Origin: an uncultured archaeon
GTDB taxonomy: Archaea; Aenigmatarchaeota; Aenigmatarchaeia; QMZP01
Assembly (NCBI GenBank): GCA_964498245.1
Contig: CAZCGK010000006.1
Location: forward strand, 944 to 64,943
Direction: 5' to 3'
DNA: 64,000 nt
The first letter of the stretch is position 1. Every line of letters starts with the position of its first letter. Both the position numbers and the translations under genes were made by a program. Positions 7,012 to 26,550 of this stretch are shown piece by piece. The notes below the pieces were generated by a model that searched no databases, was not told where the DNA came from, and was given only the letters and a program-made list of their open reading frames with translations.

Positions 7012-7026
7012 TTTAAACCTCCTTTA

Positions 7027-7164: not shown

Positions 7165-7199
7165 TAAACAACCTCCTGTTTCAATAATTACGTTTTTGA

Positions 7200-7412: not shown

Positions 7413-7457
7413 TTTGTTCCTCCTTCATAATTTATGAGACTAAGAGAAATTTATAAT

Positions 7458-8225: not shown

Positions 8226-8238
8226 TTTAACACCCTCC

Positions 8239-8925: not shown

Positions 8926-9622
8926 CTTTATCACTCTCCGATTTTTTCTTTATTTCTTCGTCCAGCATTTTTGAGATTTTTTCTGTCAATCCTTCTGCAT
9001 GGGGTTCTTTTTCTATCGTATCTATTACTCTTTTTACGAGTTTTACATTTTCACCATCAACCCACAGGATGCCGTTTTGTCCTACACTTATTTTACAACC
9101 CGTTTTTTCTTTTATTATATTTATCATTGACCCACCTCTTCCTATTAATCTTGGAACTTTGGCTGAGCTCATTTTTAGTATCATTCCTCTTCTGAATTTT
9201 TTGGCACGAGGATCGTGCATTGTAAGGTATATAGAACTTCCGCTGATATGGGATATTTTTGTGTAAAGGGTATCACCTATTCCATAAACACTGGAAAGAT
9301 CGGTTTTTGTGATGTCTATAAATCTTGTTATACCGAAAAGTGGCAGATAAGCTTCATGAACGGAATTTATATCCAACACCCAGCCATTGGTCTGTATATC
9401 TATTACCTCACCTATTACCATATCTCCAACTCTCGGAACATAGACACCTGATAAGGGTATTACTGATATCACTCTTCCCTGAACAGAGACTATACCTACC
9501 TTTTTTGAGATAATGGCTTTATCTTCTCTAAAACAATTCTTTCCAGGTATATAATCCATAGATTCTATTATTTTTTCTCCCGGTAATACCACTTCTCTTT
9601 CCCTTCTGAGCAATTTTGCCAT
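8915..9622 (-). CDS. rrp4: Exosome RNA-binding protein Rrp4
   Basis: VVLPGE; S1 domain (YVPRVGDMVIG); KH domain (VPRLIGRGGSMI, VGQNG). Confidence 0.95.
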   Translation of the reverse strand: MAKLLRREREVVLPGEKIIESMDYIPGKNCFREDKAIISKKVGIVSVQGRVISVIPLSGVYVPRVGDMVIGEVIDIQTNGWVLDINSVHEAYLPLFGITRFIDITKTDLSSVYGIGDTLYTKISHISGSSIYLTMHDPRAKKFRRGMILKMSSAKVPRLIGRGGSMINIIKEKTGCKISVGQNGILWVDGENVKLVKRVIDTIEKEPHAEGLTEKISKMLDEEIKKKSESDKDGG

Positions 9623-9681
9623 TTGATCACCTTTTTTTCTTTAAAGGAAAGATTTTTAAAACCTTTACCAGAAAGTGGAGT

Positions 9682-10380
9682 TTATGTTTTCTTTATTATC
9701 TTTGTTTCCACAGAACCAGAGGTTAACTCGTTGAGTTTTGCATATATTTCCGATTGCATCCCGGATGGGATTTGTATAACTGCCATCCACCCGTCTTCTT
9801 TCCACTCTTCTTTTTTTATCAATACCATGTTTCTTAGCACCGAGTTCACACGACCTGCATACTGAATGGGAATCTTCACTGCTATCTCTACAGTTTCTAC
9901 TTTTATTGGAATTATCTCTCTGATCTTTTCCAGTACATACTCGAACTGTTCCTTGGGTGGTCTGAAGGGGTCTATATTTATCCTTGCCTCTTCCATCGCA
10001 TTCAGTATTCTACCGATCGGATGTGGTAAATTGGTTTTAGGATCTACACCCTTTCGGGATATCATATATGCTATTTGTTTTTTGTTTTCCTCAACGAGTT
10101 TTCTTCTCTGTTCTGTGGTAAGCTGTATATCCCCGTTTTTTATTATGTCTTCTGCAACCTTGTATACATCTGTAGTGCCGAAATGTTTCACGAGCTCCCT
10201 TTCTGGTACCCTTTCCCCTTTTTTTGCATCTTTGAATATTTCATGCACGGCAAGAATATTTTCTATGGAAATATTTTTGCCTTTTTTAAATTCCAAAGCA
10301 AGCTCCGAATCAACCAGGATTTCAAACTGGGTGTTGTTCTTTCGAAGCCTTGCTATTACAGCCTTATCGAGAGAAACCAT
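9682..10380 (-). CDS. Ribosome maturation factor SBDS/Sdo1
   Basis: AVIARL...FEILVD, IFKDAKKG, QLTTEQRR, PHP..RI..AM.EA motifs. Confidence 0.95.
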   Translation of the reverse strand: MVSLDKAVIARLRKNNTQFEILVDSELALEFKKGKNISIENILAVHEIFKDAKKGERVPERELVKHFGTTDVYKVAEDIIKNGDIQLTTEQRRKLVEENKKQIAYMISRKGVDPKTNLPHPIGRILNAMEEARINIDPFRPPKEQFEYVLEKIREIIPIKVETVEIAVKIPIQYAGRVNSVLRNMVLIKKEEWKEDGWMAVIQIPSGMQSEIYAKLNELTSGSVETKIIKKT

Positions 10381-10392
10381 AAAACCCCCCGA

Positions 10393-11088
10393 TTACTTAT
10401 TACCAGTAAGGTTTGTTTTTTCAATTTTTCCCTTTCTTATTATCACAGATTCTATATATTTGTCTTTCATGCCCTTTTCTCCGGCTTTCAGTGCCTTAAG
10501 TGCCAGTTCCTTTGCCTGCTTGAGATCCATATTTTCTTTATATCCAGCATTCAAAATCCTTTTTGCCTTTTCTGAACCTCTTCCTATTGCCTGTGCTTTC
10601 CACTCAATCATTGTTCCAGAAGGCTCTGTTTCAAAAAGCCTCGAACCTGTTTTATCCACACCTCCTATAAGGAGTCCTACACCGTACGGTCTTACACCTG
10701 CATATTGTGTGACCAAATGCTTTCTATCGGCAATGAATTTCGTAAGGGTTTTTACAGATATTGGTTCACCATAGGTTATCATATTTATTTGCGCCTTTAT
10801 TCTTGCTATATCTATAAGACTTCTTGCATCTGCAATCGAACCTGCACTCACAGCAGCAATGCTATCATCTATTTCGTATATTTTCTTAAATGATTCTGAA
10901 ACTGCAAGAGGCATTGACTGCTTTACCGCTGCAAGAATAACAGCATCCTTTAAGACTATTCCTACAGAAGTGGATCCGTTTTTTACCATTTGTCTTGCAT
11001 ATTCTACTTGAAGCAATCTTCCATCTGGTGAAAATACGGTAATAGTTCTGTCATAAGCCATGTAGTTTGGTGGTATTGGTTGGGGCAT
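10393..11088 (-). CDS. psmA: Proteasome alpha subunit
   Basis: AYDRTITVFSPDGRLLQVEYA; RPYGVGLLIGG; LFETEPSG. Confidence 0.97.
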   Translation of the reverse strand: MPQPIPPNYMAYDRTITVFSPDGRLLQVEYARQMVKNGSTSVGIVLKDAVILAAVKQSMPLAVSESFKKIYEIDDSIAAVSAGSIADARSLIDIARIKAQINMITYGEPISVKTLTKFIADRKHLVTQYAGVRPYGVGLLIGGVDKTGSRLFETEPSGTMIEWKAQAIGRGSEKAKRILNAGYKENMDLKQAKELALKALKAGEKGMKDKYIESVIIRKGKIEKTNLTGNK

Positions 11089-11206
11089 GAAAACCACTTT
11101 AACAAATTAATCTTGCATTTTCAGTAAATATAATAAAGGATATGTTATATATAAAAGTTCGGAATATAAAAAACTTTTAAGTTTTAATTTTTTTAAGGAG
11201 TTGTGT

Positions 11207-11596
11207 ATGCCAAACAAATGCACTCGTTGCGGGAAAATATTTCCAGATGATTCTAAAGAGATTTTAAACGGTTGTGATGAATGTGGATCGAAATTCTTTT
11301 TTTACATTCGTCCAGAAGCACTTGAAAAAGCAGAAAAGGAATTAAAAGCTTTGAGCAAAAAGGAAGTTGAGGAAATAGAAAAGGATATAAGGCAGATTAT
11401 ATCCACACCTGCAGAGGAAGAAACCGTTGTCTTGGACCTCGAAGCGATAAGGGTAATAAAACCGGGTAAGTATAAGATAGATGTGGTCAATCTCTTTAAT
11501 CAAAGACCCATAGTTATAAGAGTTGGTCCAGGAAGATACGAAATTGACCTCTCAACATTAATGACGAGATTGAAAAGAAAGCCTCGATGGGGATAG
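11207..11596 (+). CDS. Zn-ribbon protein, DUF2072/OapC-like
   Basis: MPNKCTRCG...ILNGCDECGSKFFFY; C-terminal IRVIKPGKYKIDVVNL. Confidence 0.8.
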   Translation: MPNKCTRCGKIFPDDSKEILNGCDECGSKFFFYIRPEALEKAEKELKALSKKEVEEIEKDIRQIISTPAEEETVVLDLEAIRVIKPGKYKIDVVNLFNQRPIVIRVGPGRYEIDLSTLMTRLKRKPRWG

Positions 11597-11605
11597 GGAT
11601 TTGAT

Positions 11606-11863
11606 ATGATGGATATAGCTTTTGTTTCAGGAATGTCAGGTCTGATATGTTTGCTTTTGGCTTTTATTATGAATCTTTTCAAGAAGTTTTCCCAAGAATC
11701 ATCAAGCTATCTCCTATTAAACATTGTGGGTGGAACATTGCTGGGATATTATGCTTATACTTTAAACAGCATTCCCTTTCTTATTCTTGAAATCATATGG
11801 ACAGGATTTGCTTTTTATAAGCTTTTAAGGGTCTTAATTTTCCATTCTCGAATAAATAAATGA
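11606..11863 (+). CDS. Small 3-TM membrane protein (CBU_0592-like)
   Basis: Hydrophobic pattern G..CLLLAF...YLLLNIVGG..L..Y.......F..LE.IW. Confidence 0.6.
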   Translation: MMDIAFVSGMSGLICLLLAFIMNLFKKFSQESSSYLLLNIVGGTLLGYYAYTLNSIPFLILEIIWTGFAFYKLLRVLIFHSRINK

Positions 11864-11878
11864 AAGAATTGGAACTAT

Positions 11879-13462
11879 TTAAAATCTTCCTATTTTTAAA
11901 GCGGCTGCTGAAGGGATTTTTTCCCTTTTCGATTTGATGATATAGGCTATAACACCGGCGGTAATACCAATAACTATCAGGATTATTATAATAGTTATCA
12001 TTCCTGGCTGAGCTCCTGGAACTTTCACACAGGTATTTTCAGAGCATCCATATTGGCATATTTCTATCAGCTTCCATTCTGTGCCTTCTGGAGAACATTC
12101 TTCAAGTTTGTTTCCAGAACATCTCCTTTCTCCTGGTTTGCATATTTGTGAAATTTGTTCTGGAATTTCCAGAGATTGAGCATAAAGTTCTGTTTCCAGA
12201 GAGTTCAAAACACTTTCGTCTACTTCGGATTCCACTGTGTAGGTTATTACTATTTCATCACCTTCGCTCATCTCAGAATAAAGGAAAAGGTATTCCGGAT
12301 CCCTTTCTACAACTTCTATGGTTGCTCCCGGAGCCGTGACTGTGATATTATCTGCACTTTCTGCAAAGGTTTTCGGAATCTTTTCATATATCATAAAGTT
12401 CTTGACTTTTCCTTTACCTTTGTAAGTATAGTGATTCTCTATCACGGATTTTCCATCAGAATATCGGAAGTTTCTTTTGGCTTCTACATGTGGGGTTATG
12501 GATTCCGAGAGTCTGAGGAGATTTTCTTTAGCCTGCTCACTGAGATTTGCAAGGCCGAGAACCTTTTCTATAGCTTTCTGGAGTTTTGTGTTTTCTCTCA
12601 AACCAATGCCGGGAACAAGTGTGGGTTTTGATGTTGCATTCTTTTCTGGTGATACAGTTGGTCCTGCTGCCATGATTGCTCCGCCTGTAACACCAGTTTC
12701 ACCTGTGGTTGCTCCACCCGTTGTTGTCTGAGCTTCCTCCTCTGCTGGTGTTATGGTCAATGTGGTGGATGCCTGATCTCCAACGGCATTCTGAGAGGTT
12801 ACTGTAGCATAGATATGGTAAGTTCCTGGTGAAAGATCGCTTGTGGAGAATGTCCAGGATTTCTGTATGGTTTTCTGTGCACCAGAAGAGTATATGGTAT
12901 TATCATTCCAGTCGGTTATGGAGGATATTGATGGGTTTGTGGTCATATCTGCATCCACATCCGTTATATCCACGGTTGCGGTTGTGGAGATCTCCAGTAT
13001 AACGGTTACGGAATCTCCCTGCGTGACTGTGTAAGGAGCATTGAGAAAGCTTGCCGTTACCGAGTTTGGAGAGGTTATGGTAACCACAGTCTGCTGTGAG
13101 GATATGGATTCTTCTGTGTTTGCCTGGAAATTCCATGTTATTGTCCTGTCTGACGGATTGTACTGACATGCCATGCTCTTTGCTTCAAAGGTTATCTGGG
13201 CTGAAGGGGAATCCTGTCTCAGGCTGAAGGGTATGGTATCTACCGGAGAGAGGCAGTTTGCATCATAACCAGCAGCCGTAACCGTTACAACTGTATCCCC
13301 GGTTATGCCCGTACAGCTTACGGATATCGTTCCTGTCTCACCAACGGCTATAGTTTTTGTGCTTTCTGTATTTGTACAGGATATTGTTGCATTAGCAGAG
13401 CTAAAACTGAGAAAAACTGTCAGCAAGATTGCAATTACTGTTATTAGGATTTTCCTCTCCAT
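11879..13462 (-). CDS. Cell-surface protein with signal peptide, Ig-like domains, 6-Cys module and C-terminal TM anchor
   Basis: N-terminal signal peptide; Thr/Gly-rich linker; C-x6-C-x7-C-x12-C-x3-C-x4-C at 12029-12142; TM (ITIIILIVIGITAGVIAYII) followed by a basic tail. Confidence 0.8.
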   Translation of the reverse strand: MERKILITVIAILLTVFLSFSSANATISCTNTESTKTIAVGETGTISVSCTGITGDTVVTVTAAGYDANCLSPVDTIPFSLRQDSPSAQITFEAKSMACQYNPSDRTITWNFQANTEESISSQQTVVTITSPNSVTASFLNAPYTVTQGDSVTVILEISTTATVDITDVDADMTTNPSISSITDWNDNTIYSSGAQKTIQKSWTFSTSDLSPGTYHIYATVTSQNAVGDQASTTLTITPAEEEAQTTTGGATTGETGVTGGAIMAAGPTVSPEKNATSKPTLVPGIGLRENTKLQKAIEKVLGLANLSEQAKENLLRLSESITPHVEAKRNFRYSDGKSVIENHYTYKGKGKVKNFMIYEKIPKTFAESADNITVTAPGATIEVVERDPEYLFLYSEMSEGDEIVITYTVESEVDESVLNSLETELYAQSLEIPEQISQICKPGERRCSGNKLEECSPEGTEWKLIEICQYGCSENTCVKVPGAQPGMITIIIILIVIGITAGVIAYIIKSKREKIPSAAALKIGRF

Positions 13463-13463
13463 A

Positions 13464-16400
13464 TCACACTACCTCGTAATCTACAAATGTTATATCCACA
13501 GGCTCGTCTGAGAAGAACTGCTGACTTTTGTAGAAGAATGGTATGAGCAGCGTGTATTTGCCTGGTTGTGGTTGAGTGAGGAATGTTACATGCGCCTGTC
13601 CTGTGGAATTCATATATATTGCAGACCCGTACCAATTATCCTTTCCGCTTTCCGGACCCCCACCGAATAATTCAAATAACGGAATAGCTCCTCCGGTCTT
13701 TGTTAGATGTCTTACGAAGGGTGCCATCATAAGATTTTGCGAGGCATTTATGATTCCATTAATAAACTCACCTGGTGAGAATGGTCCTGTATCAGTTAGG
13801 GTTACCTTTGTTTGACTATCAGAACCATGTATTACTATCATGTACCCTTCCATATCGCTTATATTACTTGGAGTTTCAATTACCTGAAGGAATATGAGTG
13901 CAGGTCCTGAAGTTGTATTGGTTGGAATGGTTAGATTGAGTGAAAGGTTTCCATCGGGAGAGAGGAAACCGTAACCCTCATCCACCACGGGTACTTCCTC
14001 ATCGCCTGTGGGTTTGAACTGAAGTGTTTGCAGTTTTGCTCTTACCTCTCCCATTACTGGAGAACCGCTCTGGTTTCTAACGGTCAAGAAAAGTGTAATA
14101 TTTTCTCCTGGTTTGTATTCCAGCTTGCTGATATTTACAGTTATGTTGAAGTTTCTTACCAGGAATGGTTTTTCTGCCCAAGTGCTTCCCATTTCTGGAA
14201 CATTGACATCTACACTTGCATGATATTCACCTGCTGGAAGGTTCGAAAGAATGAATGTTACGGTTCCGTTTTGGGATGTGAGATTATACATCGGTGGAAT
14301 TTCGGGACATCCAGTAGTAGTCTCATTATCTTCGGGGGGCGGTTCAATCATCATACACCAAACATTAAGAGTAACCGATGCATTTGCCACTGGGACTCCT
14401 ATACTGTCCGTGACATTCACGGTTACATTTACGGTCTCATTAACAAAGAACTTTTCTTTTCCATTACCAAGTATTATTTTAACATTCATCGGTTTTATCA
14501 TGAACCATCTCTCTGCTTTCTGAACTGTGCCGTTATATTCAACTTCAAGTTGGAGGAGGTAGTTTCCTGGAGCTGAAGGTGTAACAAAGTTTCCTATCAC
14601 TTCTCCATATGAATCTGTTGTGTAGTTCTCGGATGATGGATAGATTTCAACCGGTTGCCAGCTCCATTCATCGATCAGTTGCCTCTTATATACTGTTGCT
14701 CCGACAACAGGATCACCGCTTGCATTCATAATTTTTATCCAGAATTGCACATTCTTGTTGGTCTGGAGGATTTCGTTCATGAGGAAGGACACCTGGAAAC
14801 TAACTACTCTGAAATGGACTCTATGTTCTGTGCTTATACCTGAACAGGTAACATTGAGTTTGGCTTCATATTCTCCGGGGTTTAGAGTCTCCGGAATCGT
14901 GAAGACAAGTCTCACTCCTGGAGGTCCCGGGCCTTCGTATGCTCCAAGATACCACTGCTGTATGCTTGATCTGTCTGCTTCCAAGTTCCAAGACTGGGTA
15001 TCTCTTATTTCCACAAGCTCAAACTTTTCACAGGAACTCTCTTCATCAATATCCTGCCAATCAGCTGACCAGACCTCTATAATTACTGTGGCGTTTTCTC
15101 CTGCCCATGCATCGTGTGGTTCCATCCATGCATTTATATAATGTTCACCTTCGCTTTTTACTTCAAACCATCTCCATTCTTCAAAGCTCTCTACACCCTT
15201 ATCACTCTGAATATCTACCTTGAATATAGCATCATATGAGCCTCTCTCTGTAGGAACAGTGAAAGTAAGATATGTTGTATTTGTGGTGGTTGTATTGCAT
15301 ACACCATAGAACGTTTCTACTCCTGTGAAGATGTTCCTTACCCTGTCAAGACAGAAATTTACATTGGTTATATTGCTCGTATCACCTGAGATTGATAACT
15401 TTGCTGTGAGCGATCCGCCTTCTATTGCAGTGTCAGGCATGCATGTTGACACATCAGGTGGACAGACAAAACTGATGCTCACACCGAACTGAGTAACCAT
15501 GAACCATACATGTCTTTCTGTTGAACTTACCGTTCCTGAAATATTGGCTGTAACATTTATTATGGCAACATATTCTCCTGTATCATTTGGAGCAATGAAT
15601 CTTAATTCAGCCCTGCCCGTGGTATCGGTTGTCTGATTATCCTTAATTACTTCGACAGATACTGGTATCCACCCATCAATCTTCCTGAATTCTATTATTG
15701 AAACATTCGCTCCTGCGACTTTATTTCCTTCGGGATCGTTAACATATACAGCAATTATCGCATTTTCACCCTCTGATAATCTGTCTGTGTTGCTGTTTTC
15801 TCCTATAACCCAAGCGTCAGCAAAAAATGTTGCAACCTCAAATCCTTCCCAGTAAGTTGCAGCGTCCTTACCTGCTATGATTTCCGCTTCGTAACGAGCT
15901 GGTTCACCCGGAACAGGTATGTTTATATATTTGAATCCTGAGGAATCTGTTTGGCCCAGATAATAATAACTTATATTTTGTCCTGGCTCCCACAGACCGT
16001 GTTTCCATATTCTCACACTTATATCAACACCCTCTTGCGGAGACCCTGATTTGAAAACATAAAGTCTTCTTGTAAAGTTCTCTCCAGGTAAATAAATCCA
16101 TTTATCATCCATTCTGTCTATTCTAAGCTCATAGGTGTTTATATCAAATCCTGTCCATGTGATTTCATTTCCATCTCCTTCTCTGAGTTTGACATCGACC
16201 TTTCCTGTGAGATTTGCTGGTAAAGTGAAACTAAGCGTGGCTATACCTGAAGGGTCTGTATCTATATACTGAGTTGTGAAACTCACATCATCCATTATGC
16301 TCCTGTGTTCTTTCTGTGAGTAGATTTCATCTATTGTTATGTTAATTCCTGACCATGCGGTACCGTTTGGGTATCTTAAAACAGCTTTTATGGTCACATT

Positions 16401-19400
16401 ATCTCCTGGAGAGAACGGTCCGCCTTCAGGCCATGCCCAGAATTCTTTGGTTCGGACATTGAAATGATAATATTCTGTGGTAATCTTATCATCAGCAAGG
16501 GTTTTGAATTCAAGTTGTGCTTCGTATTCCCCTGGACCAAGATTTGGTGTAAAACTATATTGTTCATAAGACCCGGCATTGGCTGTTATATTGGTTTCAT
16601 TGAGATTATTTACACCTGTTGATGTCCAGTCCCAGGTATTCTTTATATCCACAACTGTAACAGTAACATTTCCCTGATATTCACTTCCATTGGGATAGAG
16701 AATATCAAACACGATCGTCACATCCTCTCCCGGAGAGATATCATGTACTGTATTGGGATCCCAGTGGATTATTTCTATTTTGTAGGAACCTGCTTCAAAC
16801 CAGTAAAACTTCTCTGCACTTCCAACTTCCGCTACCAGTGTATATCTGCCTGGAGTATCTATAGTGATGTTCTGAAGGGTAAACCCTTGGGAGGTTATGT
16901 TGATCGTATGTTCTTGAAGAGTTATCCATCTGTAATCGTCTTTCAGTATTACTCTTCCTTCAACAGTTTCATTAGGTGCCGGTGTTACAGTTATATTAAA
17001 TGTTATCGGCTCTCCTGTGAAGAATCTTCTTTCCTCCCCTACAGGCGGAACTGTATCTATGGTGATTTCATAATCGCTTATCTTGAACCACACTTCTCTC
17101 ATTCTGCTTTCACCACTCGGAATATGGGTTACATTAAACCTTGCTATGTATTCTCCTGCTGAGAGTCCGGATGTAGTAAAGGTTATTCTCTTTCTGTTCA
17201 TCGGTGAGGTTTGGTTTTCTACAGTTATCTGTGAGGTTATTGCCGAAGATATGTTAAGCCAAGTTTTTCTGTCTCTGAGATCTATAAAGGAAAGAACGTA
17301 ATTTGATGGGTTCTCCAGAGCTCCTGAACTCAGTTCTACAACAATAAAGAGTTCTACTTCATCCTGCGGTGTAAATGAACCCTTTTCGGTGAAAGCATGA
17401 ACCTCAAAAGACTGGATGGAAAAACCTATGTAAACTCTTCTTCCATTTTCGCATTCTGTTCCTGGATCGGTTCCTTGCTTGTAAACACAGAGCTCTGCTT
17501 CGTATTCTCCGGGCTGAAGGTTATCTGTTATTATATTGTACGTTCCTGTTCCTGATACATTTAAGGGATTTTTAGAGTATCCGGAAATAGAAGTACCGGA
17601 CCACATATCTCTTAGTGCTTGAAGGTGAACTGTTATGTTGATAGGAGAACCATCCGGATTTCTGGCATCGAGATATACCGTTATATTCTGTCCAGTATCA
17701 TAGGCCCATTTTTCAGTCCAGAAATTCAGATCGAATGTCTTCACCCTGAACCATCTTTTAGAAACAATTATGTTTCCCGTTACATTATCTGTGACACTTA
17801 CATAAAGAACATACTCTCCTTCTGATGAAGGGGAAATGAATGTAAGGTAATTACTCTCCTGTATATTGCTGGTGATGGTCTGAAGTTGAGTTTCCGTTCC
17901 TGTATCCATACTCCTGTACTTCATACTGAGCTGGGAGACACTTATTTCTCCGCCTGTTGGATTGGATATATTCACTTCAACCTGAATTGTGGAGCCTGCA
18001 GGAAACTCTTCCATTTCATTTCCGTTTTCATCAAAAAGTTTGACGTTTACAGCAATGCTTCTAACCTCGAATTCAGGAAGTAACCACGGATCTTTTTGTA
18101 ACTCTCCGCTAACATTAACCATCGGTCTGTACACACCGGATTCTTTAGGTGCTTTGAAAATGACCTTCGTTCTACCCCCTGCATCTGTTGGAGATGCCTG
18201 ACCGACCATTTTAGCCTCCTTAAAGGTCCAGGGCCATGACTCGGTATTGACAAGCTGATATACGCTAACATTTTTTCCCTCCAGAGCGGAACCACCAGGG
18301 TCTTTAACAGTTATCCACATTTCGACGTTTTCTTCAGGTGCATAAACTCTCTTCGATGGATTTACAAGCTCACCGGAAATCTGATAGTTCTGAACAGAAA
18401 ACCATACATAAGCATCAGAGGTTGCACCGAGATCGTAAGCGTTAACCCTTACAACTGCTTCATACTGTCCAATGGGAAGGTTTGATACACTAAAACTGAA
18501 ATCTACAGTTATTTCATTTCCAGTAGTGTTCTTTGAATAGCCATAGGGATAAAGGCTTTTATCAATCTCGGTCCAAGTCATAGTATCTCTTAGCTCTACA
18601 AGAGTCAGGGTTGCGTTTACGGGAGAACCATCAACTTTTTTGACCACTATCTTCATACTTGCATTTCCGGATTGAGACACATACCAAGGATCAGCCCATC
18701 CATAAACTTCCAGAACCGAAACTTCAAACCATACTTCATGTAATTCTTCTTTTTGCTCACTATCATTCGATCTTACCTTTATTATAGCCATGTAGTAGCC
18801 CTGATCCAAACTCTTTCCTGCCTTTGCTTTTATCCATACATTCGCAACTCCTCCTGAAGTTTGACTTGAATTGGATTTGTCGTAGATATCAATTGGAACA
18901 GGAACAGGAGGTCCTCTCTGAACATATAAAAGGTTTTCTATCGAAACCTCAGAACCGTCCGGAACTAATGTACCGTTGAAATATTCGGCATGTACCTCAA
19001 AGGTTATATTATCTGTTGGTTCAAATTTCCACCGGAATTCGCCTGTTTCGCTTTTCGTGTATGCCCATACATCAAGATTGCTTACTTTGAACCATGCTTC
19101 TCCCTTGTCTTTGTTTCCATTCATGTCGGTAAGCTCTATCTCAGCTATATAGGGACCGGAAGTTAGCTGAAGGTTGGATAAACTTAGTCTTAACACAGGC
19201 CTTCCCCATTCATCATCAGGAATTTCTTTATATTTGCTTACATTGAGATTTGTATATTCTCTGTGAGTGATTTCGTTTCTTATTTTTGTAATAGAAAGTG
19301 TATATTCGGATGAATCCACTCTGTTTGTATCTCCGTGACCACCGAGATTGTATACATTGATGTGGAAGTAAACCTCATCATTCGGACCGAATCTCCACTT

Positions 19401-21116
19401 CCAGCTGCTGTTGCTGCAGGGGCCATCCATGGTGTCAACCCAAATATCATAAAGTTTTACGTTAAATCCCGTACCTGTATAGCCCTCTCCTTCGGAAGTG
19501 TTGATTCTGAGTTTCACATGATACCAACCAGGAGAATTTGGAGCAGTAAAGTATATTCTATTTCCCGAAGAAACTCTTTGAGATGCGGAAACGATTGAAT
19601 CTGTAATATCATCCCAGCTTTCGTTTCTTATTTCAAGAATTTCAATCCTGGTTACCGGGATGGGTGTGTAGTTTCCTGTAAAGGCCTTTACCTCAAGGGT
19701 TATATTCTCTCCTGTTCCATATCTCCATCTCCAAGCATCAAATTGATCCTTAGTTTCAGTATATGCAATTATATTCTGCACGAATATTGTGGTTTCGCCT
19801 CTTGCAAGACCGGCTGAAGTGTTAACCTCGACCTCTATTATGAACTCGCCTGTTTCATTTGGAGCATTGAAAGTAAGAAGCTTTGAAAATTCCATAAATC
19901 CTGGTTCCGTATGATTCAGTTCACCGCTTAATTTGGACATACAATCCTTACCCTTTATGTCCTTACATCCAACAATCCTTGCATTATATACACCCTCTCC
20001 TGATATCTGCTCACCGGTTTTCATATTTATGACAAAGAGCCCGAGTTTGACCGGCTGACCTTTCAAAAAGCCTGTTATATGTTTCATTTCGGTGAGGGGA
20101 ACAAGATCAACCCTTATGCTCCTTATTTCAAACCACACCTTTTCCAAACGTGTAGAACCGGATTTTGTAATTTCTGCTTCTACATAATATTTCCCATTGG
20201 AAAGCTCAGAAAGAGAATATGGGTTGGTCTCATAAACACCATCGGATATTTCCTGAGAAGAGTTGAATGTATATACCGTGTTACCTTTCGCATCTTTTAG
20301 ATACACATCAATATTGGCATTTTTAACCGGAATGGAAGAACCTGTACTGCTGGTGATTGTGGTTGTTATTCTAACTTTTAGCAAGTCCTCGTTGCTGAAA
20401 AGGTATTTTTTCTTTCCATCTCCACCCATCACATTCACCTTTACTTCGAACGGCGGTGCCTCAAATGCTGCCATGGCGAGACCGTTTCCAAGAACTACGA
20501 GGTAATCACCGTATTCTTTTATCTGATAGGTTATCCCAGCGGTTCCGTTGGAATTGGTTGTGATGCTTGTAGAATTCACAACACTTCCATTTATCAGTTT
20601 GATTTTTACCGGAAGTGTCACATCAGAAGCTGGAGATAATCCTGTGGGAAGAACATTCTGAACGGAAATTGTAATAGTAACTGTATCATTGAGAGAATAA
20701 GTATATTTATCAGTGGTAACAAGATATCTTTTTTCTGCTTCAACCTTAAACTGACCTGTTACAAAACCTGTATCAGAGAATTTAGTTGCTTGGACGGAGA
20801 TGGAATATATTCCCAGTGATGTAAGAGGAACTGGGTCAGATGTATATCTTCCATCAGAATCCGTGGTTTTTGATTGTGTTGAAATTGTAGATCCGTTCGG
20901 AGAAGTAAGGGTTATCGTGACGCTTGCTCCTGTGATTGGTCTTCCTGTGGTTAAGCTCCTGACCAGACCTGTAATCGTGACATTGTCTCCTGGTTTATAA
21001 ATCACATCATCTGTTCCTACTGAAACATCCAAGGGGGCTGCTTGAGTAGTAGAGATAAAAGTTAGAAATAGGAAACCTATCGACCATATGATCGTTGCGA
21101 AAATTTGCTTTTTCAT
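13464..21116 (-). CDS. Giant (2550 aa) secreted protein of about 20 tandem macroglobulin (MG2)-like beta-sandwich domains
   Basis: Signal peptide. Recurring T-D/E-K-x-x-Y/F-x-P-G-D/E-x-V starts and G-x-Y ... W-F-x-V ends about every 100-120 aa. Many N-x-S/T sequons; no C-terminal TM. Confidence 0.75.
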   Translation of the reverse strand: MKKQIFATIIWSIGFLFLTFISTTQAAPLDVSVGTDDVIYKPGDNVTITGLVRSLTTGRPITGASVTITLTSPNGSTISTQSKTTDSDGRYTSDPVPLTSLGIYSISVQATKFSDTGFVTGQFKVEAEKRYLVTTDKYTYSLNDTVTITISVQNVLPTGLSPASDVTLPVKIKLINGSVVNSTSITTNSNGTAGITYQIKEYGDYLVVLGNGLAMAAFEAPPFEVKVNVMGGDGKKKYLFSNEDLLKVRITTTITSSTGSSIPVKNANIDVYLKDAKGNTVYTFNSSQEISDGVYETNPYSLSELSNGKYYVEAEITKSGSTRLEKVWFEIRSIRVDLVPLTEMKHITGFLKGQPVKLGLFVINMKTGEQISGEGVYNARIVGCKDIKGKDCMSKLSGELNHTEPGFMEFSKLLTFNAPNETGEFIIEVEVNTSAGLARGETTIFVQNIIAYTETKDQFDAWRWRYGTGENITLEVKAFTGNYTPIPVTRIEILEIRNESWDDITDSIVSASQRVSSGNRIYFTAPNSPGWYHVKLRINTSEGEGYTGTGFNVKLYDIWVDTMDGPCSNSSWKWRFGPNDEVYFHINVYNLGGHGDTNRVDSSEYTLSITKIRNEITHREYTNLNVSKYKEIPDDEWGRPVLRLSLSNLQLTSGPYIAEIELTDMNGNKDKGEAWFKVSNLDVWAYTKSETGEFRWKFEPTDNITFEVHAEYFNGTLVPDGSEVSIENLLYVQRGPPVPVPIDIYDKSNSSQTSGGVANVWIKAKAGKSLDQGYYMAIIKVRSNDSEQKEELHEVWFEVSVLEVYGWADPWYVSQSGNASMKIVVKKVDGSPVNATLTLVELRDTMTWTEIDKSLYPYGYSKNTTGNEITVDFSFSVSNLPIGQYEAVVRVNAYDLGATSDAYVWFSVQNYQISGELVNPSKRVYAPEENVEMWITVKDPGGSALEGKNVSVYQLVNTESWPWTFKEAKMVGQASPTDAGGRTKVIFKAPKESGVYRPMVNVSGELQKDPWLLPEFEVRSIAVNVKLFDENGNEMEEFPAGSTIQVEVNISNPTGGEISVSQLSMKYRSMDTGTETQLQTITSNIQESNYLTFISPSSEGEYVLYVSVTDNVTGNIIVSKRWFRVKTFDLNFWTEKWAYDTGQNITVYLDARNPDGSPINITVHLQALRDMWSGTSISGYSKNPLNVSGTGTYNIITDNLQPGEYEAELCVYKQGTDPGTECENGRRVYIGFSIQSFEVHAFTEKGSFTPQDEVELFIVVELSSGALENPSNYVLSFIDLRDRKTWLNISSAITSQITVENQTSPMNRKRITFTTSGLSAGEYIARFNVTHIPSGESRMREVWFKISDYEITIDTVPPVGEERRFFTGEPITFNITVTPAPNETVEGRVILKDDYRWITLQEHTINITSQGFTLQNITIDTPGRYTLVAEVGSAEKFYWFEAGSYKIEIIHWDPNTVHDISPGEDVTIVFDILYPNGSEYQGNVTVTVVDIKNTWDWTSTGVNNLNETNITANAGSYEQYSFTPNLGPGEYEAQLEFKTLADDKITTEYYHFNVRTKEFWAWPEGGPFSPGDNVTIKAVLRYPNGTAWSGINITIDEIYSQKEHRSIMDDVSFTTQYIDTDPSGIATLSFTLPANLTGKVDVKLREGDGNEITWTGFDINTYELRIDRMDDKWIYLPGENFTRRLYVFKSGSPQEGVDISVRIWKHGLWEPGQNISYYYLGQTDSSGFKYINIPVPGEPARYEAEIIAGKDAATYWEGFEVATFFADAWVIGENSNTDRLSEGENAIIAVYVNDPEGNKVAGANVSIIEFRKIDGWIPVSVEVIKDNQTTDTTGRAELRFIAPNDTGEYVAIINVTANISGTVSSTERHVWFMVTQFGVSISFVCPPDVSTCMPDTAIEGGSLTAKLSISGDTSNITNVNFCLDRVRNIFTGVETFYGVCNTTTTNTTYLTFTVPTERGSYDAIFKVDIQSDKGVESFEEWRWFEVKSEGEHYINAWMEPHDAWAGENATVIIEVWSADWQDIDEESSCEKFELVEIRDTQSWNLEADRSSIQQWYLGAYEGPGPPGVRLVFTIPETLNPGEYEAKLNVTCSGISTEHRVHFRVVSFQVSFLMNEILQTNKNVQFWIKIMNASGDPVVGATVYKRQLIDEWSWQPVEIYPSSENYTTDSYGEVIGNFVTPSAPGNYLLQLEVEYNGTVQKAERWFMIKPMNVKIILGNGKEKFFVNETVNVTVNVTDSIGVPVANASVTLNVWCMMIEPPPEDNETTTGCPEIPPMYNLTSQNGTVTFILSNLPAGEYHASVDVNVPEMGSTWAEKPFLVRNFNITVNISKLEYKPGENITLFLTVRNQSGSPVMGEVRAKLQTLQFKPTGDEEVPVVDEGYGFLSPDGNLSLNLTIPTNTTSGPALIFLQVIETPSNISDMEGYMIVIHGSDSQTKVTLTDTGPFSPGEFINGIINASQNLMMAPFVRHLTKTGGAIPLFELFGGGPESGKDNWYGSAIYMNSTGQAHVTFLTQPQPGKYTLLIPFFYKSQQFFSDEPVDITFVDYEVV

Positions 21117-21208
21117 TGATTTAATAATTGCACCTCGGTTGTATTTAAATTTTATTTTTTTGTATAAACATTATCTGAATAAAGGGTTAATTTAATTTGA
21201 TTTTGGTT

Positions 21209-24200
21209 TTACTGTATTGCTCTAATTTTAAACATATATATTGCTGCTGCACCTGCAACAAGTATTGCAATTATGAGATACCATATCCATGTATAATCTG
21301 GGGATTTACATTTTTCCTCTGAACAGCCATATTGGCATATTTCCAAAGTCTCCCAGGATGTTCCTTCTTGATTACATTGCTGGAGTTCCTGACCCAGGCA
21401 TCGCTTTTCTCCAGGTGTACAAACTTGCTTGAGTGGTTGTTCTTCAGGTTGTTTACAGTCTTCAGGGCAGTTTTCAGGAGTTTCTCCCTCCTCGCAAACA
21501 CCATTTATATTGCAAACTTCCTCCGAAACTTGAACTTCTTCTCCTGCTATTGCGAAGTAGGAAAAGCCTGTGCTTTCTGCCTCATAGTAAACTGTTTTTG
21601 AATCTTCAGATATCAGGGTTGTTGGAAGTTTTTGCCAGGAGGTTGTATAGCGGTATAAAGAGATTGTGGATTTGTTTATGTTATTCTCTTCTATCCAAGA
21701 TTTGTTCACATGGAACTTTATAGTTGCTTTTTCAAGATTGTTTCGCAGGTTTCTGTGGGTTATTTCTATGTATTGGTATACTTTACCGGAAACTTCATGA
21801 GTTACATCTGCTGGTTTCCCTTTAAGCTTGGTCACCTTTATGTAAACAGAGGTAGCAGGATTTATGACCATTATACCTATCTCATGGATTCCAATTTCTT
21901 TCTTATTGAGTTTGAAGATTGAAACATTTCCGGGGTTTACCCTGCTCCAGGAGTAGGCCACGTAAGGAAGAATTTCTTGTGGTGTGTAGCCTGCACCTCC
22001 ACCCGTATCATAGGTGATGGAAGATTCGGGTGGTGTGTAGCTGACCGTTAGGTAATAAACAGAGGAGATTCCTGTGTTACCTCCTGCATCTCTACATCTT
22101 ACACTCCAGTTATAGTTTCCGTTAGAGAGGGATTTTGTAAAGGTTTGGGATGTGTCTTTTGTTATTGAAGTATCGGTCTGATCTGTGATGCCATTTATTA
22201 GAAGTGTGCATGAAGTTATACTGCTTGCATCTGTTACATTGTAAGTGAATGTTACCGTACTTGAGGAGGTCCAAGTGGATGCATTTGAAGGAGAGATAAG
22301 GGTAACGCTTGGCTGAATGGTATCCACTGTGAATGTGATACTTGCATGGTTAATATTTCCGGCGGTATCATTCATCCAGAGGATAAGGGTTGATTGCTGA
22401 TTGTTAAGAGCGGTAAATGTTTGGTTTGAGCATGAAGGTAGGCTTGTGTTCGTTCCATTATATTGATACCAGCATGTATCAAGATTGGCTTCGGTGTAGG
22501 TGAAGTTTAGCCAGAGAGTTGTGGTATTGTATGTGGTGTTTTGTGGCGAGAGTATTGTTATTGTTGGTGGGGTGGTATCAACTGTGAAGTATTCCTGTGC
22601 AGAGCCTGTATTTCCTGCGGAATCGTTGGCATAGACTATAACATTGTTCAATCCTTCTGATGCTGTTATGGTTATGTTTGAACATGATGCTAATATTATG
22701 TTACTTCCTCCGTTTAATGAATACCAGCATGAATCAAGGTTTGCGTCCTGAACTGTATAGTTCAGATCTATAGATGTTGTTGCATATGTGGTGTTTTGTG
22801 GTGAATAAATTGTTACAGTTGGTTGTGTTGTATCTACGGTTACATACCAAGTTCCGTTCCAACCCCAGTTTCCAACGCTGTCGTTTATATAGACCGAGTA
22901 GGAGATTATTCCATCTCCTTGGTTTGTAGCATTGAAGTAGCAGGCATAATTTCCGAGCATGGTCATGGTGTAGTTTGCCTGAGTTCCGTTGTTGAGCTCA
23001 AGTATGCAAGCTTGCGGCGTATCATCTGTGAATGTTATGTTTATTTCGAAATAATTTGTATTGATATGAGAATTGTTTGAAGGTGTGGGTGAGACAATGA
23101 TTATGTTCGAAGGCGGACCTGTGCTTACGTAGGTTGTAAATATTACCCCATCATCTGCAGAGGAAAGGTTCCAGTCTGTTTCGGTATCCGTTCCGTTCCA
23201 GTGGTTTGCAATGATATAGGAAGTATATACACCCTCGGTGGAATTTGACACATTAAGTTCAACCACTTCCCATTCTCCTATGGAGAGGTTAAGGAAAGTA
23301 TCATTCAATATTCCTGTTCCTACCACACTGAGATTATATTCCTCTCCAAGGCTGTTGTTTCCGAAATTAGTTATGTTTATGAGATATGTTGCATTTTGTC
23401 CTGCCTGAACAAATCTTTCCATAACGGTGAGGTTTTCGAATGTGAGGTTATGAAGTGTGCTTCCAACCACGTAGGTGGAGAATGTGCTTACGGTAAAGCT
23501 AAGATTCTCTCCATCAAATACTACATCCATACATCTGGTCGGTGGACATGGTTGAAGGTCTGATGGCAGGAAGCTTCCGTTAAAGCTTCCGTAACCTATT
23601 GACGGATCTTTTATACCAAGCAGTCCTGTGATATTATATATTGTTATTCTTGCAGATGTTGTGAGATTTGGTTTATCTCCCTGTCCATTCCATTCAGAAT
23701 CATTTATACCTATCCTTCCTGCTTTCATGAGGTTTTTCATTGCGAATTGCATTATAGCGGACGCTTTTTCTTTCGTGCTCATATCTACAGGCTGCGTGAA
23801 GTTAATCTTCACAACACCGGGAATCTCTATCACCAGAGGTACAGCAGAGAAATCACCTGTAGCTGCAATCTGATTGAAGTTTGTGGTGCTTCCACCGAAT
23901 TTAGGAGTACACACAACATAATCGGTTCCGTTATCCCATGCAAATCCTATGTTTTCAACAGGACATTCATTTGTGCAACCTGTTATATTCACGAGAGTTC
24001 CATTCGGTAAGGGCATCTGCGGAGGAAGTTCAAGTACATTTGGAGGGCAACTTGGAACAACACTCATGTTGAAAAGCAAGACTGGAACAAGAAATTCATA
24101 ATAGAAAACTGAATCATTTGTTGCTTTTACCGTGATGTTTACATCGCTGATATACTTTATGTTTACATTGAGATTGGAGTAATCTATAAATGCTCCAGCC

Positions 24201-24916
24201 CTGTACCAACCATTTCCTAAATCCTCTGCCTGAATGAATTCCGGTCCTCCTATTTGGGAGAAATTCATCGTAACATTCAATCCAGGAACACCTACACTCT
24301 CACCATTAGTAAAGTTTGCAACGATCTCTACCCAGTTTCCATCATAGAAAAACATGTCTGTTGTATTGGACAAATTCAGTGCTGGTCCAGGGCCAAATTG
24401 GCTCCAAGGTGTGAATCCAGGACCGAAGGGTTGAAGAACCTCAAAATTCAGTATTGTTGTATTTGTTGAATCATCGGTGAATGTTGTTGTCACATTTATT
24501 TGATAAAGTTTTCCTTTATTCGGTATGCTTATGTTAAAGAAGAAATATTGTGTTGTTCCGTTCTCTATGAAGCCTGAGGAAGTTGTGTTGGACCATACAA
24601 GATGCATAACAGATCCTGCACTTGTGTTGGAGAAAGTTGTGGATTGAGCTGTAGTCTGAGCAGATCCTTCAATGAATACAAGCTCTGCAGGGAGGGTTAT
24701 GTTGACTTTAGTTATGTTCAGAGCAGAGTCTGTATTTGTGATGCTGATATTGAGTATCTGGTTGGACTGATCCGGATATGGAATAGCAACCTGAGATGGT
24801 TGAATGCTGGATTGAAATGTTGCACCATGAACTGAAAAAGAATAAAATGATATACATAATAACAATACAGCTATAAAACAAAATACTGCTCCTATCTTTA
24901 AATTAACTTTTTTCAT
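21209..24916 (-). CDS. Cell-surface glycoprotein with Ig-like repeats, PGF-pre-PGF-type domain, Cys-rich modules and C-terminal TM
   Basis: Signal peptide from MKKVNLK (24916). Repeats TVDTTxPTxTIxSPQNTTY...NDxAGN. ESTGFSYFAIAG (PGF-pre-PGF-like); CNINGVCEEGETPENCPEDC; 6-Cys module at 21308-21421; TM plus basic tail. Confidence 0.85.
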   Translation of the reverse strand: MKKVNLKIGAVFCFIAVLLLCISFYSFSVHGATFQSSIQPSQVAIPYPDQSNQILNISITNTDSALNITKVNITLPAELVFIEGSAQTTAQSTTFSNTSAGSVMHLVWSNTTSSGFIENGTTQYFFFNISIPNKGKLYQINVTTTFTDDSTNTTILNFEVLQPFGPGFTPWSQFGPGPALNLSNTTDMFFYDGNWVEIVANFTNGESVGVPGLNVTMNFSQIGGPEFIQAEDLGNGWYRAGAFIDYSNLNVNIKYISDVNITVKATNDSVFYYEFLVPVLLFNMSVVPSCPPNVLELPPQMPLPNGTLVNITGCTNECPVENIGFAWDNGTDYVVCTPKFGGSTTNFNQIAATGDFSAVPLVIEIPGVVKINFTQPVDMSTKEKASAIMQFAMKNLMKAGRIGINDSEWNGQGDKPNLTTSARITIYNITGLLGIKDPSIGYGSFNGSFLPSDLQPCPPTRCMDVVFDGENLSFTVSTFSTYVVGSTLHNLTFENLTVMERFVQAGQNATYLINITNFGNNSLGEEYNLSVVGTGILNDTFLNLSIGEWEVVELNVSNSTEGVYTSYIIANHWNGTDTETDWNLSSADDGVIFTTYVSTGPPSNIIIVSPTPSNNSHINTNYFEINITFTDDTPQACILELNNGTQANYTMTMLGNYACYFNATNQGDGIISYSVYINDSVGNWGWNGTWYVTVDTTQPTVTIYSPQNTTYATTSIDLNYTVQDANLDSCWYSLNGGSNIILASCSNITITASEGLNNVIVYANDSAGNTGSAQEYFTVDTTPPTITILSPQNTTYNTTTLWLNFTYTEANLDTCWYQYNGTNTSLPSCSNQTFTALNNQQSTLILWMNDTAGNINHASITFTVDTIQPSVTLISPSNASTWTSSSTVTFTYNVTDASSITSCTLLINGITDQTDTSITKDTSQTFTKSLSNGNYNWSVRCRDAGGNTGISSVYYLTVSYTPPESSITYDTGGGAGYTPQEILPYVAYSWSRVNPGNVSIFKLNKKEIGIHEIGIMVINPATSVYIKVTKLKGKPADVTHEVSGKVYQYIEITHRNLRNNLEKATIKFHVNKSWIEENNINKSTISLYRYTTSWQKLPTTLISEDSKTVYYEAESTGFSYFAIAGEEVQVSEEVCNINGVCEEGETPENCPEDCKQPEEQPLKQVCTPGEKRCLGQELQQCNQEGTSWETLEICQYGCSEEKCKSPDYTWIWYLIIAILVAGAAAIYMFKIRAIQ

Positions 24917-25108
24917 ATACAAATAAATAATTAGCTTGAGACCTATATAAAATTTTAAATCGTATCCGCAAAATAAAGCAGCTTGCAAAAATAAACCTTT
25001 ATAAACCTCTGCAGTATTCTAAATATATAATCTATAATATATTATTCTCTCCTGTTCCAAATCTCGGAATCGATTAAAGCCTTCAGTTTTTGCGGAGGTG
25101 ATAACCCC

Positions 25109-25834
25109 ATGAAGGCTTTAATCATTGCAGCGGGAGATGGAACAAGGCTGAGTAAATATACCAAAACACTACCCAAATCTCTCCTCAAGATAAATGGAAA
25201 GACCATATTGGAAACAATTTTAACCAACTGTAAATCCCTAGGCATAAAAGATTTCGTGATAGTTACCGGATATCTTCAAGAAAGGTTCAGAAAATTTTTA
25301 ACTGAAAATATTATCAACAAGATGGGAATAAACGTCGAATTCGTCAGTAACCCGTACTTTGAGAAAGAGAACGGTATCTCTGCTTACTGTGCAAAGGATG
25401 TTTTGAAGAATGAAAAAAATTTTCTCCTTCTCATGTCCGATCACATATTTCATCCATCACTGCTTAAAACACTGCTAACTGTAAAAATAGATAACGGCTG
25501 TGCTCTTGCAATTGACAAAAATATTTCTGAAATCTATGATATAGAGGATGCAACAAAGGTCTACGAGGTCAAGGGAAAAATAAAAGATATAGGCAAAAAT
25601 CTTAAGAGCTTCAATGCGGTAGATACCGGTTTCTTTTTATGCACACCCGAGCTCTTTACAGCTCTCGAGAAGCAGATAAATAAAGGAAATGATAAGCTTT
25701 CGGATGCGATGAGATTTCTTGCTAAAAAAGGTAACCTTGCATCCGTAGATGTTTCAGGCAAGTTCTGGCTTGATATAGATACGGAAAGAGATCTGGAATT
25801 TGCAAAACACAGAATCTCAAAAATTACCGGGTGA
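25109..25834 (+). CDS. NTP transferase, CTP:inositol-1-phosphate cytidylyltransferase (IPCT)-like
   Basis: IIAAGDGTRL...PKSLL; MSDH; ATKV..KGKIKDIGKNL...VDTGFF; WLDIDT - the pattern of the IPCT domain; GGAGGTG SD upstream. Confidence 0.8.
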   Translation: MKALIIAAGDGTRLSKYTKTLPKSLLKINGKTILETILTNCKSLGIKDFVIVTGYLQERFRKFLTENIINKMGINVEFVSNPYFEKENGISAYCAKDVLKNEKNFLLLMSDHIFHPSLLKTLLTVKIDNGCALAIDKNISEIYDIEDATKVYEVKGKIKDIGKNLKSFNAVDTGFFLCTPELFTALEKQINKGNDKLSDAMRFLAKKGNLASVDVSGKFWLDIDTERDLEFAKHRISKITG

Positions 25835-26529: not shown

Positions 26530-26550
26530 TCTCTGGTTTTAAAGAAAATT

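Follow-up and report, generated by a model that had tools for sequence, protein, structure and literature searches.

In the Sulfolobales, the S-layer proteins SlaA and SlaB, solved structures of which are available in the PDB, are encoded in one operon, the large gene ahead of the small one (PMC6911244). The large product is secreted, N-glycosylated, built from multiple β-sandwiches, and devoid of a membrane anchor, and the small product carries a signal peptide, N-terminal β-sandwiches, and a single C-terminal transmembrane (TM) helix. Here we describe a gene pair of the same layout from an uncultured archaeon of the Aenigmatarchaeota, a DPANN lineage, in a 64,000-nucleotide (nt) stretch of DNA (GenBank assembly GCA_964498245.1, contig CAZCGK010000006.1, positions 944–64,943), the whole of which we call the window. 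The first gene encodes a protein of 2550 amino acids (aa), here called the giant, for which N-glycosylation is predicted; the second encodes a 527 aa partner, the anchor, so that the small products of the two systems both measure about 475–530 aa. We propose, with modest confidence, that the giant and the anchor make up a two-component, membrane-tethered, glycan-coated cell-surface structure that is specific to Aenigmatarchaeota.

The pair also departs from SlaA and SlaB. The giant is about 1.8 times longer than SlaA and contains 22 domains of the macroglobulin (MG) type; the anchor combines a flexible linker of low complexity with a Cys-rich module, and no coiled-coil stalk of the SlaB kind was identified in it; and the lineage of the giant also has conventional candidates of the S_layer_C type. 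The layout of the pair thus parallels that of SlaA/SlaB and may have arisen independently, from MG-type domains.

Within the same phylum, MSTP-like S-layer proteins of 745–794 aa have been predicted for Aenigmarchaeota (Johnston et al., bioRxiv 10.1101/2024.05.28.596244). Proteins of this S_layer_C/MSTP-like kind share their cellular compartment with the giant, but they are unrelated to it in sequence, are 700–850 aa long, and, as judged from a homolog described below, are not enriched in glycosylation sequons. For another DPANN archaeon, Nanobdella aerobiophila, the part of a preprint considered here (Kato et al., bioRxiv 10.1101/2023.10.27.564410) presents an unanchored glycoprotein with immunoglobulin (Ig) folds and a C-terminally anchored Ig-fold protein. 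Compared by description only, these candidates resemble our pair in kind, but they are about 1000 aa long with 4–5 Ig folds and, in that part of the source, are not described as an adjacent pair.

The domains of the giant invite comparison with α2-macroglobulin, complement C3, and the thioester-containing proteins (TEPs), with which they share the MG-type β-sandwich, the start motif T-D-x-x-x-Y-x-P-G-[DE]-x-V, and very short interdomain linkers. Unlike these proteins, the giant has no thioester motif, thioester domain (TED), bait region, CUB domain, or receptor-binding (MG8) domain; it has 22 MG-like domains compared with about 8 in α2-macroglobulin (a figure given in an earlier note on this DNA), is archaeal, and is paired with a membrane anchor. 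Although the MG domain is shared, the giant therefore fails as a member of the α2-macroglobulin/TEP family. Giant Ig-like repeat adhesins (Big_1/invasin-intimin and RTX types, and a 51-domain Mobiluncus adhesin; PMC10619420) are likewise very long, secreted β-sandwich chains at the cell surface. The repeats of the giant, unlike theirs, are ancient, individually conserved, and fixed at 22, with no tip domain recognized; and the giant has no sortase, type I secretion system, or autotransporter signal, its attachment being expected to use a separate anchor.

The Giant and Anchor Genes Form a Conserved Pair

The two genes, their flanking elements, and the parts of their products occupy the following positions in the window.

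21117–21208 (−): AT-rich intergenic region upstream of the giant gene, with TATA-like elements (TTTATACA, AAATTTAAATAC); read from the sequence
13464–21116 (−): giant gene, stop codon at 13464–13466; from the open reading frame (ORF) list and translation
21039–21116 (−): predicted Sec-type signal peptide of the giant, residues 1–26 (MKKQIFATIIWSIGFLFLTFISTTQA / APLDV); from hydropathy and pattern
13839–21038 (−): 22 tandem MG/Ig-like β-sandwich domains (D1–D22), residues 27–2426; from our own hidden Markov model (HMM), Pfam MG2, and AlphaFold2 (AF2) models
13467–13838 (−): D23, a distinct C-terminal β-rich domain, residues 2427–2550; from hhalign, orthologs, and an AF2 model
11879–13462 (−): anchor gene (527 aa), start codon 1 nt past the stop codon of the giant
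12728–13387 (−): anchor head, residues 26–245, two β-sandwich domains with four conserved Cys; from alignments
12029–12142 (−): six-Cys module of the anchor, residues 441–478 (CKPGERRC...CQYGCSENTC); from translations and alignment
11936–12001 (−): C-terminal TM helix of the anchor, residues 488–509, followed by a basic cytoplasmic tail, residues 510–527; hydropathy peak 3.05
11840–11878 (−): T-rich tract past the anchor stop codon, a possible archaeal oligo-T terminator; read from the sequence

The giant is encoded by one intact ORF with an ATG start, and the co-oriented anchor gene follows after 1 nt (junction TGA-t-ATG). A GAGGTG stands 14 nt before the ATG of the giant. The AT-rich region upstream may act as a promoter and the T-rich tract behind the anchor gene as a terminator, and the two genes are almost certainly co-transcribed.

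We examined 11 loci and found an anchor homolog directly behind the giant ORF, on the same strand, in every one; the two genes either overlap or are separated by no more than 19 nt. All 11 loci are archaeal, and those that carry a name are Aenigmatarchaeota.

Window: giant of 2550 aa, anchor behind
L001: giant of 2565 aa, anchor behind
L004: giant split between two ORFs, anchor behind
L006: giant of 2550 aa, anchor behind
L009: giant of 2897 aa, anchor behind
L010: giant of 2558 aa, anchor behind
L011: giant of 2175 aa, anchor behind
L012: giant of 1719 aa, anchor behind
L013: giant of 2347 aa, anchor behind
L014: giant of at least 2214 aa, anchor behind
L015: giant of 2048 aa, anchor behind

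In L004 (450–8185), the giant ortholog lies in two ORFs (450–3914 and 3956–8185) and the anchor gene behind them is intact; a frameshift or stop codon would account for the split, as would an error in the assembly. A distant giant-like protein, P0006, has no anchor neighbor.

The anchor consists, in order, of a Sec-type signal peptide, head, linker, middle module, six-Cys module, TM helix, and basic tail. The head (about 220 residues) is its most conserved part, and its second domain shows a weak CARDB/NPCBM_assoc/DUF11 resemblance in 8 of 29 homologs. The linker is of low complexity and rich in Gly, Ser, Thr, and acidic residues; the middle module is variable, and some homologs carry a PGF-pre-PGF-like domain in its place. 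The same topology was seen in each of the four anchors for which hydropathy was scanned, and in all nine paired anchors the C-terminus is formed by a hydrophobic stretch and then a basic tail. We found 32 anchor homologs, which are Candidatus Aenigmarchaeota wherever they are named. Against all chains of the PDB, phmmer gave no match to the anchor, and a profile built from the anchor alignment gave only noise (E > 0.03).

Anchor heads remain 40–65% identical even where the giants have diverged past BLAST recognition (L011 and L012). Because the similarity of the heads outlasts that of the giants, these observations fit a conserved adaptor at the membrane and an exposed partner that evolves fast. 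In the Sulfolobales, the large exposed S-layer partner also evolves faster than its anchor, and in this respect the pair resembles SlaA/SlaB. L012 shares the housekeeping synteny of the window (proteasome alpha, SBDS, Rrp4/41/42, SepF, and FttA), indicating that the pair belongs to the core genome and is not an island.

The locus was also recovered independently of the assembly analyzed here. A contig of 50 kb from a separate metagenome run spans positions 7401–27400 with 0 differences, and three more metagenomes contain copies of the giant locus that are at least 99% identical, which indicates that the giant gene is not an assembly artefact. The four metagenomes compared at the locus represent near-identical strains, and the giant contains no hypervariable segment. 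The runs that bear the locus are DNA metagenomes from hydrothermal vents, marine sediment, and seawater.

N-Glycosylation Sequons Are Enriched in the Giant and Not in the Anchor

We compared the number of N-X-S/T sequons in each protein with the number in composition-preserving shuffles. The giant has 77 sequons, about threefold more than the 26.7 ± 4.9 expected (z about 10), and the anchor has 4, compared with 4.8 expected. This asymmetry recurred across the family, with z = 8–13.5 in nine of nine giants tested and z between −1.9 and +1.4 in nine of nine anchors tested. Cytoplasmic control proteins from the window gave z values near 0. We read these counts as a sign that the giant, and not the anchor, has been selected to carry a dense coat of glycans, which would fit a giant that is the most exposed component.

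The Giant Is a Chain of MG/Ig-Like Domains

The predicted signal peptide is the sole hydrophobic segment found in a hydropathy scan of the giant, which thus has no TM anchor of its own; the earlier note had been right that its C-terminus is unanchored. In all orthologs an A-x-A-like site stands just ahead of a conserved V/LDVSxGTD, a pattern that suggests signal-peptide cleavage.

An HMM seeded with residues 798–908 and iterated over the giant and its orthologs found 22 non-overlapping repeat copies between residues 34 and 2426 (per-domain E values of 1e-9 to 1e-25), close to the figure of about 20 MG-like domains given in the earlier note. The ten motifs quoted there are all present at the expected positions: the domain-start motifs are TDDVIYKPGDNV at residue 35, TDKYTYSLNDTV at 135, TEKWAYDTGQNI at 1134, TEKGSFTPQDEV at 1243, and SKLEYKPGENI at 2330, and the domain-end motifs are VWFEI at 327, AWFKV at 674, VWFEV at 795, RWFRV at 1121, and RWFEV at 1982. 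The repeats are about 100 aa long. BLAST with fragments of the giant gave many internal matches (20–41% identity, E values down to 4e-12), and self-BLAST of the whole protein returned nothing except the self-match. In a matrix of hhalign comparisons, D8/D11/D12/D14/D17/D19 and D1/D2/D3/D21/D22 formed subgroups. Offsets of about 325 aa in the BLAST matches had hinted at a super-repeat of three domains, which was rejected, as the matrix showed no periodicity.

The C-terminal domain D23 (about 125 aa) is unrelated to the repeats, with hhalign scores of at most 27 against each of D1–D22. It is 35–48% identical across seven close orthologs and was modeled with a predicted local distance difference test score (pLDDT) of about 80–90; searches of Pfam and the PDB gave no match to it.

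Pfam assigned MG2 to the giant with E = 4.3e-28 and 97.9 bits (cutoff 32.8) in three stretches, the best at residues 35–125. Weaker matches were to Big_1, CarboxypepD_reg, Wzt_C, Arrestin_C, transthyretin, and bMG3, each a β-sandwich family; there was no match to TED, nor to A2M, A2M_BRD, A2M_recep, or CUB at E ≤ 1. The Pfam scan proposed in the earlier note thus returned MG2 strongly, bMG3 weakly, and A2M not at all. Large relatives of the giant match MG2, MG3, and MG4; three of them gave no TED, A2M, A2M_recep, or CUB match, and two relatives reached A2M_BRD below threshold only (E about 1e-3; 19.9 bits compared with a cutoff of 22.7). Invasin_D3 and Big_1 matches also occur within the family. 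NCBIfam gave no meaningful match, including PGF-CTERM, in either the giant or the anchor.

AF2 models were built from six-sequence alignments and cover residues 1–1130 and 1351–2550 of the giant, with mean pLDDT values of 78.6 and 79.1 and predicted template modeling (pTM) scores of 0.43 and 0.47. Both models are all-β, with no helix exceeding four residues, and successive domains are linked by just 2–3 residues, the last strand of one domain running into the first strand of the next. The stretch outside the models (residues 1131–1350) consists of two repeat domains according to the HMM. Because neither model contains a helix longer than four residues, the giant appears to lack the α/α-toroid thioester domain. 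There is also no C-x-E-Q thioester motif anywhere in its sequence. These results, together with the Pfam scan, bear out the claim of the earlier note that the chain has neither a thioester nor a bait region.

We used the two models (1130 and 1200 residues, rather than single domains) as Foldseek queries, for which TM-scores reached only 0.1–0.2. The majority of the top 50 PDB matches were to complement C3/C5/CVF, ECAM, Salmonella A2M, CD109, TEP1, and A2ML1, which makes the α2-macroglobulin/TEP class, including its bacterial members, the commonest among them; further matches were to NUP210, hydin-like ciliary proteins, a mastigoneme, and MyBP-C (TM 0.1–0.2). Against viral models (BFVD), phage Big_1, FN3, and Ig chains matched equally strongly, with E values down to 4e-28, so the Foldseek result is not specific for MG. 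It supports only a long tandem β-sandwich chain and does not separate MG from Ig/Big_1. With the giant as query, phmmer matched only one of all PDB chains, by chance (E = 0.26). The MG assignment therefore rests on the Pfam sequence matches, which are strongest for the terminal domains; the MG2-type class named in the earlier note stands at the level of sequence, but the fold search did not single out MG over Big_1, FN3, or Ig.

The Giant Family Is Rare and Its Domain Number Is Fixed

A word-indexed search of 5.8 billion clusters found five full-length relatives of the giant (36–47% identity, 97–99% coverage) and one distant relative. When 1.84 billion representatives were searched by phmmer with residues 1351–2550, 28 proteins matched at E ≤ 1e-3 and 18 of these at E ≤ 1e-30; no α2-macroglobulin was recovered. 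The full-length family members among these matches are 2482–3629 aa long, and most full-length matches begin at the same chain position as the query, which indicates that they are members of the giant family. The closest genomic relative lies on a contig labeled Candidatus Aenigmatarchaeota (L002) and is 64% identical in its best segment. The family is rare and unnamed, with no solved relative. With no full-length match to a described S-layer or adhesin family and no thioester or A2M domain, the giant is distinct from those families, as the earlier note had supposed.

Each of seven close full-length orthologs has 22 domains according to the HMM. Orthologous domains are 30–59% identical (mean 43%), D9 being the best conserved and D21–D22 the worst, and paralogous domains within the giant have a mean identity of about 30% by global alignment. 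The constant number of domains, the excess of orthologous over paralogous identity, and the absence of periodicity indicate that the architecture is old and fixed and is not an expandable repeat stalk.

Some relatives (P0004, at residues ∼2504–2897 of the L009 giant, and P0041, P0047, and P0049) carry 390–1350 extra residues at the C-terminus. The extra modules in some relatives are FN3-like, PPC, DUF4215, and CarboxypepD_reg. As some members add such modules, the C-terminus is the modular, variable end of the family.

An S_layer_C Gene Adjoins the Pair in a Relative

In L015, a gene at 11712–14189 (+), 280 nt downstream of the anchor homolog, encodes an 825 aa protein with an S_layer_C domain (PF05124, E = 1.7e-24), and one of its homologs is labeled Candidatus Aenigmatarchaeota. 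Sequons are not enriched in this protein (z = 0.3), which is most likely a separate envelope component beside the pair. Further very large surface-protein genes flank the L015 cluster. Two other S_layer_C loci (L016 and L017) have no giant within 10 kb. We found no homology to SlaA or SlaB for the giant, the anchor, or the anchor profile in searches of all PDB chains, and no S-layer protein was among the top 50 Foldseek matches in the PDB.

Genes Surrounding the Pair

The genes that flank the pair in the window are archaeal housekeeping genes (exosome Rrp41/Rrp42/Rrp4, SBDS, proteasome alpha and beta, FttA, SepF, aRF1, and MetRS). Directly upstream of the giant, at 21209–24988 (−), lies a third surface-protein gene with a 1259 aa ORF, whose start is probably an internal ATG at 24916. 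Its product has a signal peptide, Ig-like Big_13/Big_7 repeats, and a PGF-pre-PGF domain (NCBIfam, E = 2.7e-33), carries the six-Cys module and TM helix of the anchor, and contains 62 sequons compared with 22.8 expected (z = 9). This gene is not conserved beside the pair in other loci. Its Ig-like repeat region at 22575–22843 recruited divergent metagenome contigs at 10–30 times the local depth, which indicates that other organisms, present in these samples at greater abundance, commonly carry a related domain.

In four loci, a Peptidase_A24 (prepilin-peptidase-like) gene, encoding 278–283 aa with a conserved C-terminal extension, lies near the 5′ end of the giant gene.

Window: 26551–27402 (+), Peptidase_A24 gene
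L001: 9004–9846, Peptidase_A24 gene
L002: 8584–9420, Peptidase_A24 gene
L010: 104–949, Peptidase_A24 gene

Given this neighbor, we considered class III (prepilin) signal peptides for the giant and the anchor and rejected them, because both N-termini look like Sec/signal peptidase I substrates.

A nucleotidyltransferase, a CDP-alcohol phosphatidyltransferase, and several GT2/GT4 glycosyltransferases are encoded around the surface cluster (25109–26529, 27486–28988, and 44173–46722) and may supply envelope glycans or lipids. At 29015–31762 (+), a 915 aa ORF without a Pfam match contains zinc-ribbon-like CxxC pairs near its N-terminus, a stretch rich in Lys, Glu, and Arg, several hydrophobic helices in a block, a C-terminal β-rich region, and a Cys-rich tail. 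A T2SSE-family secretion ATPase (764 aa) lies beside two unannotated ORFs of 452–475 aa, one of them sequon-enriched (z = 3.9), at 39206–44161, about 18 kb from the giant; this may be an assembly locus for a type IV pilus or an archaellum-like structure. A type III CRISPR-Cas locus occupies 53620–62834 (Cas1, a Cas4/Csa1-like nuclease, Csm6 with HEPN, and Cas10 with an HD domain, besides other ORFs), and a repeat array with a period of 76–77 nt and at least 8 units follows at 63025–63592 (repeat roughly GAAGAAATCGGAAATAGGAAAGGAGTACATGGCAAC).

Discussion

In the reading that we favor, the giant and the anchor would both be exported, and the giant would be heavily N-glycosylated and held on the cell by noncovalent binding to the conserved two-domain head of the anchor. 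The linker, stalk module, Cys-knot, and membrane helix of the anchor would space the giant away from the membrane. The giant would then form the outermost, glycan-coated element of the envelope, as an ordered coat or a stiff fiber that lies on or projects past a conventional S-layer of the S_layer_C type, and it may serve there as a contact and protective surface, plausibly including contact with a host cell.

Several observations weigh against this reading. The window contains no S_layer_C gene, and coexistence of such a gene with the pair was seen only in the relative L015. None of the RNA runs contains the giant locus. Binding between the giant and the anchor is predicted from gene order, topology, and composition, and a role in host contact, plausible as it is, has the DPANN lifestyle as its one ground. 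Either end of the giant may meet the anchor: its N-terminal half is better conserved than its C-terminal half, and the C-terminal end appears to differ in the longer relatives (3055–3629 aa), whose match to the C-terminal-half query stops at about residue 2250–2280 of the window protein, near the D20/D21 boundary. In overall shape, the chain may be either a rod or a compact assembly.

Much about the pair would suit the organism's main S-layer, with the giant as a lattice canopy like SlaA and the 527 aa protein as a membrane stalk like SlaB. Gene order and topology match those of slaA-slaB (a large glycoprotein that lacks an anchor, paired with an anchored protein of ∼500 aa); the module is part of the core genome, single copy, and always paired; the fixed set of 22 individually conserved domains suits a defined lattice subunit; both proteins are acidic (pI about 4.3–4.7); and the window holds no other S-layer candidate. 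SlaA-/SlaB-like proteins have also been proposed for another DPANN archaeon in the part of the study by Kato et al. (bioRxiv 10.1101/2023.10.27.564410) considered here. We nevertheless regard this explanation as unlikely. The giant far exceeds in length the S-layer proteins compared here, and neither a sequence match to SlaA, SlaB, or solved S-layer proteins nor an S-layer protein among the top 50 Foldseek matches was found. Because Aenigmatarchaeota encode S_layer_C/MSTP-like proteins of 700–850 aa, for which p6 lattices are predicted, and one such gene adjoins the pair in L015, we conclude that the pair is probably not the main S-layer and that it most likely coexists with a conventional one.

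The remaining explanations do without the anchor. As a long tandem β-sandwich chain with short linkers, the giant recalls bacterial Big_1/Ig-repeat adhesins and phage Ig chains, and the C-terminal end of its family is variable, some relatives adding PPC, DUF4215, or FN3-like modules there. It could accordingly be a self-sufficient, classical fibrillar adhesin that binds the S-layer or a host by its own domains, or is released, with the anchor gene unrelated and merely co-expressed. This seems to us quite improbable: adjacency in 11 of 11 loci, with junctions that overlap or span 1–19 nt, across giants that have diverged past recognition would be difficult to account for unless the two were functionally coupled, and the giant has a fixed number of repeats, which are not homogenized, and no ligand-binding tip domain recognizable in Pfam. 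The earlier note, which saw no C-terminal anchor in the giant, had proposed a filament, cage, or lattice, possibly for adhesion or for protease or virus shielding. A released poly-MG assembly that shields in the manner of α2-macroglobulin would agree with the MG2 match (E = 4.3e-28), with MG3 and MG4 in relatives, and with the dominance of α2-macroglobulin, complement, and TEP structures in the Foldseek PDB top 50, but we give it very little credence. The gene for a membrane-anchored partner lies 1 nt downstream, and its pairing with the giant is invariant in the 11 loci, so the giant is likely tethered and not free. The machinery of shielding is also missing: there is no CxEQ and no helix of more than four residues in the models, residues 1131–1350 are two repeat domains, and no A2M, TED, A2M_recep, or CUB domain is found in the giant or in three large relatives, nor a bait region or a receptor-binding domain in the giant. 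The phmmer search with the C-terminal half yielded only 28 matches, none of them an α2-macroglobulin, and the Foldseek E values are unspecific, phage Ig/Big_1/FN3 chains scoring equally.

Returning to the membrane-tethered, glycan-coated structure that we favor, a bolder form of it can be put forward tentatively, although we think it unlikely. The pair may build a second, ordered, glycan-coated shell, or an array of stiff spikes, on a dedicated membrane stalk outside the conventional S-layer, specific to Aenigmatarchaeota and used for host docking, and may at the same time be an archaeal, thioester-free use of a chain of MG domains, here 22 in number, such as is otherwise known from the α2-macroglobulin/complement superfamily. 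If true, such a shell or spike array would be a previously unseen kind of archaeal envelope. Full-text literature searches found no paper on the giant family or the gene pair.

The cell surface and lifestyle of the uncultured DPANN Aenigmatarchaeota are essentially unknown, and the pair identified here is a conserved part of their core genome, its products being the largest protein of the locus and the probable membrane tether of that protein. It offers a concrete molecular target for work on the assembly of the outer surface in these very small cells and on their possible contact with hosts. The target could be put to use in antibody or fluorescence in situ hybridization (FISH)-style probes, the interpretation of cryo-electron tomograms, metaproteomics, and heterologous expression. 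More broadly, the giant suggests that archaea use chains of MG-type domains as a structural surface element without the thioester machinery that defines the α2-macroglobulin/complement family, and the pair may represent a second, independently evolved case of the SlaA/SlaB-like layout, in which an unanchored canopy protein is combined with an anchored stalk protein.

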